Origin: Salinivirgaceae bacterium
Lineage (GTDB): Bacteria; Bacteroidota; Bacteroidia; Bacteroidales; SZUA-534
Direction: 5' to 3'
Length of the DNA: 64,000 bases
NCBI GenBank assembly: GCA_050179685.1
Contig: JBFXEW010000017.1
Location: forward strand, 1-64,000
Both the position numbers and the translations under genes were made by a program. Positions 10,465 to 11,625 of this stretch are shown one piece after another (positions within the stretch are counted from its first letter, which is position 1; each line of letters opens with the position of its first letter). The notes under the pieces were generated by a model. That model made no database searches. It had not been told where the DNA came from and saw nothing but the letters and a program-made list of their open reading frames with translations.

Positions 10465-11625
10465 ATGACTATGTCGAATAAACACAAAATTAAAATTTAT
10501 CCAGTAGGCAATGCCGATACAACATTAATAAAAACGAGCGATAACATTACTATTCAGGTTGATTGCCAAATACGTGATGGTGAAGAAGATTCAGATGGTA
10601 TTAAAATCTACGATGTCAAGAAAGATTTAATTAACGATCTGGAAAAAGACACAGATAAAAATCCATTTCTGGACTTATTTGTTTTATCGCATGCACACAA
10701 GGATCATTGTCTAGGATTTGAAGGCAATTATTATTGCGGCGATCCCAACGAATATAAAAAAGAAAATCGCGAAAATGATGAAATTATCATTGGGGAGCTA
10801 TGGGTAACGCAGATGATTTTTGGTAATGATATTTGTGAACAGGCTACGGCTATTCGCAAAGAAGCTAAGCGTAGACGAAAACTTTTTGAAGAAAATCCTA
10901 TAGAAGCTAATAAGCAAGGAAATCGATTACGCATAATTGGGTATAATGATCAGGATAAAATAGTTGATGGCTTAAATTATATCCCAGGAAAAATTGTAAC
11001 ATCTATAAATGGAAAATATACGGGTTTAATCGAAATATTTATCCATGCACCATTTAAAAGTGATTTAGTTACTGGTAAAGCAGATAAAGACCATAATGCA
11101 ACAAGTATTGTATTCCAAATTGCATTACGTGTAACACATGGAGGTGCAATTAAATCAAGAGCTATTTTTGGTGGTGATGCAGACCATTATATATGGGAAA
11201 AAGTTTTAAGAAAATCAGAAGAAAATGGAAATTATGATCGATTAAAATGGGATTTGTTCCTATCTCCACATCATTGTTCATGGTCATTCTTCAACGACCG
11301 CCCTTACGAAGAGAATAAAGAGCCAAAGGATTATTCATTAGAGTTTCTGGACTATAAACAGAATAATGCTTACATCGTTGCATCGAGTAAGAAAATTGTC
11401 GATGATGATAATAATCCACCTCATTATCCAGCAAGAAAAGAATATATTAAAAAAGTAACAGAACCTTATTTTAGAAATACAGCTACACATAAAGGAGAAA
11501 AAGCCCCAAAACCATTAGAGTTTATAATAGATGATGGTGGGCTTACTTTAAAAAAAGAGGCAACTAATGCTGGTGCCGCAATTGCGGGAGGTTCAATTCC
11601 AAGAGCAGGTTCTTATGGAGTATAA
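10465..11625 (+). CDS. metallo-beta-lactamase fold hydrolase (predicted nuclease/phosphodiesterase effector or conjugation substrate)
   Basis: 386 aa; the N-terminal beta-strand region is followed by the MBL motif (HxHxDH as LSHAHKDHCLG), with later His/Asp residues (HAPF, GGDADH, SPHHCSW). The C-terminus is a Gly/Ala-rich flexible tail (NAGAAIAGGSIPRAGSYGV). Confidence 0.6.
   Translation: MTMSNKHKIKIYPVGNADTTLIKTSDNITIQVDCQIRDGEEDSDGIKIYDVKKDLINDLEKDTDKNPFLDLFVLSHAHKDHCLGFEGNYYCGDPNEYKKENRENDEIIIGELWVTQMIFGNDICEQATAIRKEAKRRRKLFEENPIEANKQGNRLRIIGYNDQDKIVDGLNYIPGKIVTSINGKYTGLIEIFIHAPFKSDLVTGKADKDHNATSIVFQIALRVTHGGAIKSRAIFGGDADHYIWEKVLRKSEENGNYDRLKWDLFLSPHHCSWSFFNDRPYEENKEPKDYSLEFLDYKQNNAYIVASSKKIVDDDNNPPHYPARKEYIKKVTEPYFRNTATHKGEKAPKPLEFIIDDGGLTLKKEATNAGAAIAGGSIPRAGSYGV

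Follow-up and report, generated by a model that had tools for sequence, protein, structure and literature searches.

A metallo-β-lactamase-fold protein with a conserved Pro-Arg-Ala-Gly tail as the predicted conjugation substrate of its overlapping E2-E1-JAB partner

The stretch of DNA considered here, hereafter the window, comprises 64,000 nucleotides (nt) of contig JBFXEW010000017.1 (assembly GCA_050179685.1, positions 1 to 64,000 of the forward strand) from a Salinivirgaceae bacterium of the phylum Bacteroidota, and our subject is a pair of overlapping plus-strand genes of the 6A-MBL type lying within a defence island. The first gene (10465..11625) encodes a hydrolase of the metallo-β-lactamase (MBL) fold, a probable effector that is also presumed to serve as a ubiquitin-like 'substrate', as judged from its open reading frame (ORF), its homologues, its metal motifs and an AlphaFold2 model. 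The second (11615..13834) encodes a triple-module E2-E1-JAB enzyme of 739 amino acids (aa) counted from ATG 11615, which is recognized by matches in Pfam, PADLOC and the PDB. The question pursued below is whether the MBL protein is merely a neighbour of this enzyme or the very protein that it processes and conjugates.

The two genes and their overlap

The MBL protein is 386 aa long, its C-terminus reading ...AGAAIAGGSIPRAGSYGV / ...LKKEATNAGAAIAGGSIPRAGSYGV ahead of a TAA stop codon at 11623-11625. A Pfam scan of the protein returned no match, and its characterization is based on PADLOC, profile searches and structure prediction; a database search retrieved 803 homologues. The metal site is preserved (H76-x-H78-x-D80-H81, H194, D238/D240/H241 and H269/H270), all its residues being invariant in a 46-sequence alignment except for position 78, where the window protein has His but many relatives have Asp. 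The AlphaFold2 model (mean predicted local distance difference test score, pLDDT, 89.8; predicted template modelling score 0.89) places the HxHxDH, H, D and H motifs that define the MBL superfamily on an alpha-beta/beta-alpha fold. Its top match in the PDB is the beta-lactamase-like (nuclease) domain of ComEC (9ic4, E = 1e-11, TM-score on target 0.70), followed by the phosphodiesterase Pce, the tRNase-Z-like PNGM-1 and RNase J/Z, and PADLOC adds weak matches to the effector modules RTasMBL (DRT) and LmuA (Lamassu). Because the metal site is complete and the fold and PADLOC matches point the same way, the protein can be read as a putatively active phosphodiesterase or nuclease. Several of its homologues carry the labels 'cobyric acid synthase CobQ' or 'ribonuclease BN' in the source databases, which look like annotation errors, and one close homologue (70% identity) is recorded from an archaeon, 'Methanococcoides sp. 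SA1', which looks like horizontal transfer or contamination; P0009 and P0013 are the entries concerned.

The downstream enzyme had been described in a first-pass annotation of this DNA as an E1-JAB protein; both of these modules stand, but an E2 domain in front of them had been overlooked. Pfam recognizes Prok-E2_A at residues 59-163 (3e-16), ThiF/E1 at 356-456 (3e-9) and Prok-JAB at 608-717 (4e-10), and the PADLOC models for the CBASS (the antiphage signalling system based on cyclic oligonucleotides) E1-E2 and JAB proteins match at 5.6e-27 and 1.8e-26, respectively. The closest solved relatives are Cap2 structures (7tsq, 7tsx and 7to3; E ~1e-9), the alignment running to the E1 domain of Cap2. 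The E2 domain (11789..12103, plus strand) carries H102 (11918-11920) and the catalytic C115 (11957-11959), both invariant in 61/61 homologues and corresponding to the conserved His and Cys of operon type 6a described in Iyer et al. 2006. The E1 adenylation domain, together with its putative catalytic Cys, spans 12680..13219 on the same strand; its residues G359xG361xxG364, R373, D383, K406 and D451 are kept in 60-61 of the 61 homologues, and C535 (13217-13219), invariant in all 61, would by this invariance and its position be the catalytic Cys of the E1 crossover loop. The JAB/JAMM metalloprotease domain (13436..13765, plus strand) is equally well preserved, with E622, H686, H688, S697 and D700 retained in 60-61 of the 61.

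How closely are the two genes joined? Two ATG codons, at 11567 and 11615, lie in the frame of the second ORF 59 and 11 nt, respectively, before the end of the MBL stop codon, as the first-pass annotation had noted in leaving the choice between them open. Since the N-termini of 61 E2-E1-JAB homologues align at MEYNYPIIKGE, with no conservation in the sequence upstream, ATG 11615 is the real start, ATG 11567 can be discarded, and the MBL stop and the E2-E1-JAB start overlap by 11 nt (ATGGAGTATAA; 11615..11625, plus strand).

The C-terminal tail of MBL

The idea that MBL ends in a flexible Gly/Ala-rich tail reaching into the next gene, also put forward in the first-pass annotation, is borne out by both composition and modelling. 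There are 5 Gly and 5 Ala among the last 21 residues, and this Gly/Ala/Ser-rich segment, residues 366-386 (11560..11622, plus strand), coincides with the sole long low-confidence stretch of the AlphaFold2 model (pLDDT <50), in keeping with disorder. Near its end lies P379-R380-A381-G382 (11599..11610, plus strand), which is picked out by conservation among homologues: RAG occurs within the last 12 residues of all 71 full-length MBL homologues at 51-100% identity, usually in the form (T/S/A/I)-P-R-A-G, and Pro stands at position -3 in 84 of 96 tails. PRAG is found even in a Klebsiella plasmid homologue that is only 32% identical to MBL. Positional entropy amounts to 0.84 bits at the Pro, 0-0.08 bits at R, A and G, and 2.6-2.9 bits beyond the Gly; the values for R, A and G are fixed by the search pattern, and it is the count of 71/71 that offers non-circular support. 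In 84 of 92 relatives, 34 residues separate the last conserved strand motif from the Gly, a length that the linker keeps even as its makeup shifts between A, S, G and T. To judge from these sequences, the tail is a fixed-length flexible linker that closes in PRAG, with the Gly at its functional end.

It was another site, an internal Gly-Gly, that had originally been singled out as a possible point of processing. Its two residues, G375-G376 (11587-11592), occupy positions filled in relatives mostly by S/G/T and S/N/K/T, so this candidate must be rejected in favour of PRAG. Aligning homologues, the check that had been suggested for both features, thus upholds the tail, with its invariable RAG and its constant length, but not the Gly-Gly.

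Beyond Gly382 the window protein continues with S-Y-G-V (11611..11622, plus strand), an unconserved extension matched in relatives by variable ones of 0-9 residues and predicted to be a pro-peptide that the JAB domain removes. Among 97 distinct xRAG-class tails, 19 end exactly at the Gly, 23 continue for one residue, 40 for two, six for three, five (including that of the window) for four, three for six and one for nine. The extension looks like translation running on into the region where the next gene starts, and its 'YG' arises from the ATG-GAG of that gene, overlapped in another frame (tAT GGA). This last detail bears on whether the mature C-terminus might be Gly385 (SYG|V), in which case only the final Val would be removed. 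Such an end would resemble that of large sister clades in which xYG is terminal, and three close homologues (P0004, P0009 and P0019) do show PRAG(R/K)(Y/N)G(I/L). However, a second Gly is present in only ~4 of the 97 xRAG-class tails whereas RAG is present in all of them, 19 of which finish at its Gly, and the Tyr-Gly is a by-product of the overlapped start codon (tAT GGA = ATG GAg); we regard maturation at Gly385 as quite improbable. Gly382 of PRAG is probably the reactive residue, that is, the predicted mature C-terminus and site of conjugation.

A further possibility is that the conservation has nothing to do with the protein and reflects a ribosome-binding or coupling signal imposed by the gene overlap. 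Wherever the downstream gene is intact, as it is in 29 xRAG-class loci, its ATG follows the Gly codon at 2-14 nt (the exception, L049, is likely a pseudogene), and in the window AGAGCAGG stands ahead of the ATG, both of which would suit such a signal. But the codons of PRAG vary synonymously throughout, Arg being written AGA, CGT, CGA or AGG and Ala and Gly each with all four codons, so that no nucleotide motif is kept; moreover, different clades preserve the terminal Gly inside different motifs. Because every codon varies in this way, selection on these sequences is taken to act on the PRAG peptide, and PRAG as a ribosome-binding or coupling signal can be rejected; what chance is left to the nucleotide-level explanation, which is largely refuted, is very slight indeed.

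Tail endings and partner genes across the family

A profile search over 1.84 billion representative proteins yielded 988 relatives of MBL. When 114 full-length representatives (50% identity) are compared by their terminal residue, this is Gly in 53 and Ala in 17, together 70 (61%), as against a background of ~11% among long ORFs of the same fetched loci (binomial p = 2e-38), the commonest endings in this group being HG, YG and YA. Of the remaining 44, a further 40 have an aromatic/His-Gly/Ala or RxG motif somewhere in their last 12 residues, with 1-8 more behind it. The tail motifs of the sister clades are VVKxG, xYG, xHG or YA, the last with a terminal Ala.

A survey of partner genes in 80 genome loci, nearly all from Bacteroidota, revealed that the type of tail goes with the type of enzyme encoded next to it. 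Tails with a Gly motif (xRAG, SRVG, VVKxG or xYG) adjoin an overlapping E2-E1-JAB gene (716-794 aa) in 61/61 complete loci, and in four more loci of this kind the E2-E1-JAB copy is truncated or disrupted. In 11 loci with tails like KKPWC.., SGNWC.., GHWAE or KQPHC.., summarized as (W/H/Y)(C/S/A), the MBL gene is followed by one for a ~230-aa protein that matches the CBASS models for standalone E2 enzymes (1e-55), located at about 7090-7860 in each (L016, L022, L028, L029, L035, L051, L062, L068, L069, L077 and L078); a SEC-C zinc motif was recognized by Pfam in a single member of this group. In three others (L015, L019 and L026), with H(R/K)FYGE tails, there follows at about 7140-7625 a gene for an E2 of 143-159 aa (PADLOC CBASS E2 model, 1e-41). 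The tails of these E2-only sister clades run 1-6 residues past (W/H/Y)(C/S/A) or FYG, and neither an E1 nor a peptidase is encoded nearby. The E2 identity of the E2-only partners is based on the PADLOC CBASS E2 models; Pfam found nothing in two of three of them, and hhalign gave no significant similarity to the E2 domain of the window (probability <1%). Orthologues that lack the tail and yet sit beside an E1-JAB enzyme, which would speak against a substrate role for MBL, were looked for in the 61 complete loci and in three plasmids, and none was found; the proteins without the Gly motif pair with a standalone E2.

The pair also occurs far from Bacteroidota. The MBL tails of three plasmids taken from PLSDB end in ...AAPRAG|VINQ (Klebsiella pneumoniae pYUYZH22127-2, L081), ...TPKTYG|K (Clostridium perfringens pCP721-84_1, L082) and ...PMPHG|AS (Acinetobacter seifertii pAS78-1, L083), and each of the three MBL genes is overlapped by an E2-E1-JAB gene of 743-761 aa. 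MBL homologues were present on at least 284 PLSDB plasmids (126 from Klebsiella, 31 from C. perfringens, 25 from Escherichia and 18 from Acinetobacter), about half of them conjugative; none was found in the phage genome records searched. The plasmid genes are annotated as 'hypothetical protein' or 'metallohydrolase' together with 'ThiF family adenylyltransferase' or 'Mov34/MPN/PAD-1', and in the Klebsiella plasmid a gene with a WYL domain lies divergently upstream of the pair.

Could MBL still be an independent effector or accessory hydrolase, with the E2-E1-JAB enzyme acting on a protein encoded elsewhere? The link between the two is comparative and not biochemical, MBL goes unrecognized by Pfam, and the operon sometimes has a third gene, all of which would suit this alternative. 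On the other hand, the two-gene core is kept from Bacteroidota to Proteobacteria and Firmicutes, in overlapping frames and with no gene for a ubiquitin-like protein (Ubl), and an enzyme acting elsewhere would leave unexplained both the bias for terminal Gly/Ala and the fact that the tail type changes along with the partner. The chances of this alternative appear slim, about the same as those of an end at Gly385. By contrast, the suggestion made from the sequence at the outset, that MBL serves the downstream enzyme as substrate or pro-protein, gains support from tail conservation and partner co-occurrence.

Not all members of the family end in a tail. In P0171, P0191 and P0246 the C-terminal ~125 aa form an AGS-C sensor domain (PF18134, up to 3e-40), fused in place of the tail; AGS-C is the domain also carried by CBASS/Pycsar-type cyclases. 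In P0111 and P0170 MBL and E2 are fused in frame and the tail motif is internal (KADKPF.. and ..IRPHG-ELQ..). On the evidence of these AGS-C and E2 fusions, the MBL family draws on the regulatory modules that the immune cyclases also use.

Proposed mechanism

Taken together, we find it likely that the genes at 10465-11625 and 11615-13834 make up a 6A-MBL defence module in which MBL is the conjugated substrate, filling the part of a ubiquitin-like protein or, put otherwise, that of the CD-NTase in type II CBASS. MBL would be synthesized in a pro-form whose disordered tail, ~20 residues long, ends in ...SIPRAG-SYGV, and the JAB domain would cleave after Gly382 and so release SYGV. The carboxylate of Gly382 would then be adenylated by the E1 and form a thioester on Cys535, from which the E2 would receive MBL on its Cys115, and MBL would then be joined to an amine, probably that of a lysine, of a target. 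By analogy with CBASS, ligation may prime, activate or localize the hydrolase, and the same JAB domain could render the conjugation reversible, the 11-nt gene overlap presumably keeping the two proteins co-expressed. The JAMM site is intact also in loci where MBL already ends at Gly, which argues that JAB is not only a maturase. The initial question whether the tail suits trimming of the Bil kind or conjugation of the CBASS kind may pose a false choice: by analogy with both systems, Bil-like trimming by JAB is probably followed by Cap2-like adenylation and conjugation.

These thoughts draw on several lines of evidence: the preserved E2, E1 and JAB active sites, the disordered fixed-length PRAG tail, the Gly/Ala ends, the covariation of tail and partner, the recurrence of the pair on plasmids and the lack of a Ubl gene. 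The features just listed are observed in sequences, and from them, by comparison, we infer each of the biochemical steps. Several points weigh against the proposal. Cleavage, adenylation, thioester formation and conjugation in this MBL family are steps deduced, here as in the literature searched, from sequence comparison. The characterized CD-NTases of CBASS end at Gly/Ala without an extension, and maturation by JAB is an idea borrowed from Bil. The covariation of tails with partners is not phylogenetically independent, as tail class and partner class are co-inherited. The true end could be at the second Gly of the window tail, G385 (SYG|V), which is reminiscent of the xYG found at the termini of sister clades. 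Finally, both the enzymatic activity of MBL and its conjugation target are putative.

The most serious competitor to ligation is a tail that only docks or regulates. It would bind the E1 or JAB site, perhaps going as far as an adenylate or thioester, and hold MBL inactive or free it upon infection, with no transfer to a third party. Covariation of the tail with its partner and a conserved terminal Gly are equally expected of a recognition peptide; Cap2 does form a stable complex with the CD-NTase, and the in-frame MBL-E2 fusions with their internal motifs would fit well. The E2 His/Cys and the E1 Cys, invariant in 61/61 homologues, are nevertheless hard to explain without transfer, and the homologous CBASS enzyme does ligate its substrate to targets. 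Docking alone thus seems unlikely, although less so than the alternatives discussed above, and conjugation through Gly382 is preferred.

How far might conjugation through the tail extend beyond the window? Four forms are seen in the MBL family: members with a Gly tail next to E2-E1-JAB, members whose tail is paired with a standalone E2, members bearing a fused AGS-C domain, and in-frame MBL-E2 fusions. It is conceivable that the whole family is an effector class of 'enzymes as ubiquitin' whose C-terminal module is interchangeable, as in CBASS/Pycsar cyclases, with, in the E2-E1-JAB form, JAB as an obligatory maturase and a nuclease covalently attached to phage or host targets, and with E2-only clades whose conjugation or activation chemistry requires neither a terminal Gly nor an E1; this broad generalization is speculative and rather unlikely to hold.

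What would follow if the proposal is correct? Processing would remove 406.2 Da from MBL, and conjugation would, after trypsin, leave an Ala-Gly remnant on target lysines. The mechanism becomes directly testable, with the reactive residue pinned to the Gly of a PRAG-type motif, most members of the family predicted to be pro-proteins in need of JAB, and a tail type that switches with the partner enzyme. The principle of CBASS, in which an immune enzyme serves as its own ubiquitin, would be extended from nucleotide cyclases to a hydrolase. As for annotation, the two genes labelled 'hypothetical protein' and 'ThiF family' on at least 284 plasmids, many of them Klebsiella plasmids, would be one defence module.

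The surrounding defence island

The pair is embedded in an island with the order Band7, RtcB, HsdM, HsdS, a 292-aa protein, AbiLi/AbiLii, MBL and E2-E1-JAB, a small membrane protein, HsdR, two uncharacterized proteins and a WYL protein. A type I restriction-modification operon is split here, hsdM (3940-5547) and hsdS (5544-6716) being parted from hsdR (14504-17896) by a gap of ~7.8 kb that holds the 292-aa gene, AbiLi/AbiLii (7841-9798), the 6A-MBL pair and the gene of the membrane protein; because of this separation, the latter defence genes can be said to be nested inside the restriction-modification operon.

The gene directly after the pair (13824..14414, plus strand) encodes a predicted membrane protein of 196 aa with hydrophobic segments near both ends. 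The ORF tool placed its start at GTG 13797, and ATG 13824 is likelier; with the latter start it overlaps the E2-E1-JAB stop by 11 nt. Its homologues are directly adjacent and co-oriented in 10 of the 80 related loci, on either side of the pair and in one case following an E2-only partner. PADLOC gives a weak match to PDC-M48A (2.5e-5), while MBL itself weakly matches PDC-M48B. The membrane protein may be a facultative third component of the system.

Directly after hsdR, on the opposite strand (17930-20633), lie genes for two proteins of 207 and 367 aa with no Pfam match, beside that of a WYL-domain protein (19740-20633), which could form another defence or regulatory module of the island. The 666-nt gap between AbiLii and MBL (9799-10464) contains no convincing ORF, only short ones, among them one for a very basic peptide of 36 aa at 10296-10406, and the search for small ORFs in it produced no lead. 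A scan of 9700-14600 for promoters and terminators found sites no commoner than in shuffled sequence, and a tRNA scan of the window found none.

Comparison with known systems

By its sequence the locus is a member of the known 6A-MBL system, or operon type 6a, and the system as such is not new: the type 6a operon was defined in 2006 and has been known ever since (Iyer, Burroughs & Aravind 2006). Families 6a-6e were subsequently listed, with 6b equated with CBASS and the E1s of 6a and Cap2 placed closest to ATG7 (Ledvina 2022 preprint). Citing papers credit van den Berg et al. 2024 with validating 6A-MBL against phages in Pseudomonas aeruginosa, and '6A-MBL' is named among the jumbo-phage defence systems of this species and also in a 2026 review. 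A preprint of the Corbett laboratory states that 'MBL pathways' conjugate their enzyme by a fused E2-E1, citing Ledvina 2023, Jenson 2023 and van den Berg 2024. MBL as a conjugated substrate is therefore already the working assumption of the field; incremental additions to it may be seen in the reactive site, the pro-peptide, the covariation of tail and partner, and the sister forms with an E2-only partner or AGS-C. In the literature searched, which did not extend to van den Berg 2024 and the final version of Ledvina 2023, there is no description of the MBL tail motif, the pro-peptide, the E2-only sister systems or the mechanism, and 'MBL' combined with 'Cap2' turned up only in one discussion sentence and one review.

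The defining features of 6A-MBL are all present in the window, namely E2, E1 and JAB domains with conserved catalytic residues and an adjacent co-oriented MBL gene. As in other members, a single polypeptide, in which E2 is followed by E1 and E1 by JAB, is encoded beside the gene of a specialized MBL to form a two-gene core, and the setting is one of mobile elements and defence islands. The architecture does not differ; the locus comes from Bacteroidota, includes an optional gene for a membrane protein and is lodged between hsdS and hsdR. Anti-phage protection is predicted by analogy, from secondary citations for 6A-MBL and from the island setting with type I restriction-modification and AbiL.

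The MBL fold itself finds its closest structural matches in the nuclease domain of ComEC and in RNase J/Z, with which it shares the complete HxHxDH/H/D/H metal site. Sequence identity, however, is ~14%, and the window protein has neither a membrane channel nor a beta-CASP domain.

In type II CBASS, the CD-NTase has an extended disordered C-terminus with a conserved terminal Gly/Ala, which Cap2 adenylates and conjugates (Ledvina 2022 preprint), and Cap3 cleaves C-terminal fusions as well as conjugates. The likeness to the window is considerable. PADLOC and the PDB point to a Cap2-like E2-E1 and a Cap3-like JAB, here fused in one protein, and there is a presumed substrate enzyme with a disordered tail and a conserved Gly/Ala but no Ubl gene, the window MBL ending four residues past its conserved Gly. 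The systems differ in that an MBL hydrolase takes the place of the CD-NTase, that ~80% of MBLs carry 1-9 residues past the Gly and so would need maturation, and that the JAB is fused to the ligase. Neither Pfam nor PADLOC matched a CD-NTase/SMODS protein in the ORFs scanned from 292 to 23336, MBL occupying that position, nor was a known CBASS effector domain responsive to cyclic nucleotides found, the adjoining 196-aa membrane protein showing no Pfam match and only its weak PDC-M48A match.

In Bil (BilABCD), BilC pre-processes BilA, exposing its Gly, and the JAB also deconjugates. Trimming of a C-terminal extension by a JAB is the step proposed here, by analogy, for SYGV. Unlike the window, Bil employs a small beta-grasp Ubl and separate canonical E1 and E2 enzymes, as opposed to the 43-kDa enzyme that would be conjugated here and an E1 of the Cap2/ATG7 type. 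No ORF for a small beta-grasp Ubl lies between 9798 and 14504, where only MBL, E2-E1-JAB and the membrane protein are encoded.

Type II (short) CBASS, finally, has an E2 without an E1 and no JAB, and it resembles not the window locus, which has the full E2-E1-JAB, but the E2-only sister clades of the MBL family, which likewise do without E1 or JAB (PADLOC E2 matches at 1e-55 and 1e-41) although their tails finish with (W/H/Y)(C/S/A) or FYG and some further residues. The MBL family thus mirrors the split of CBASS into long and short forms.

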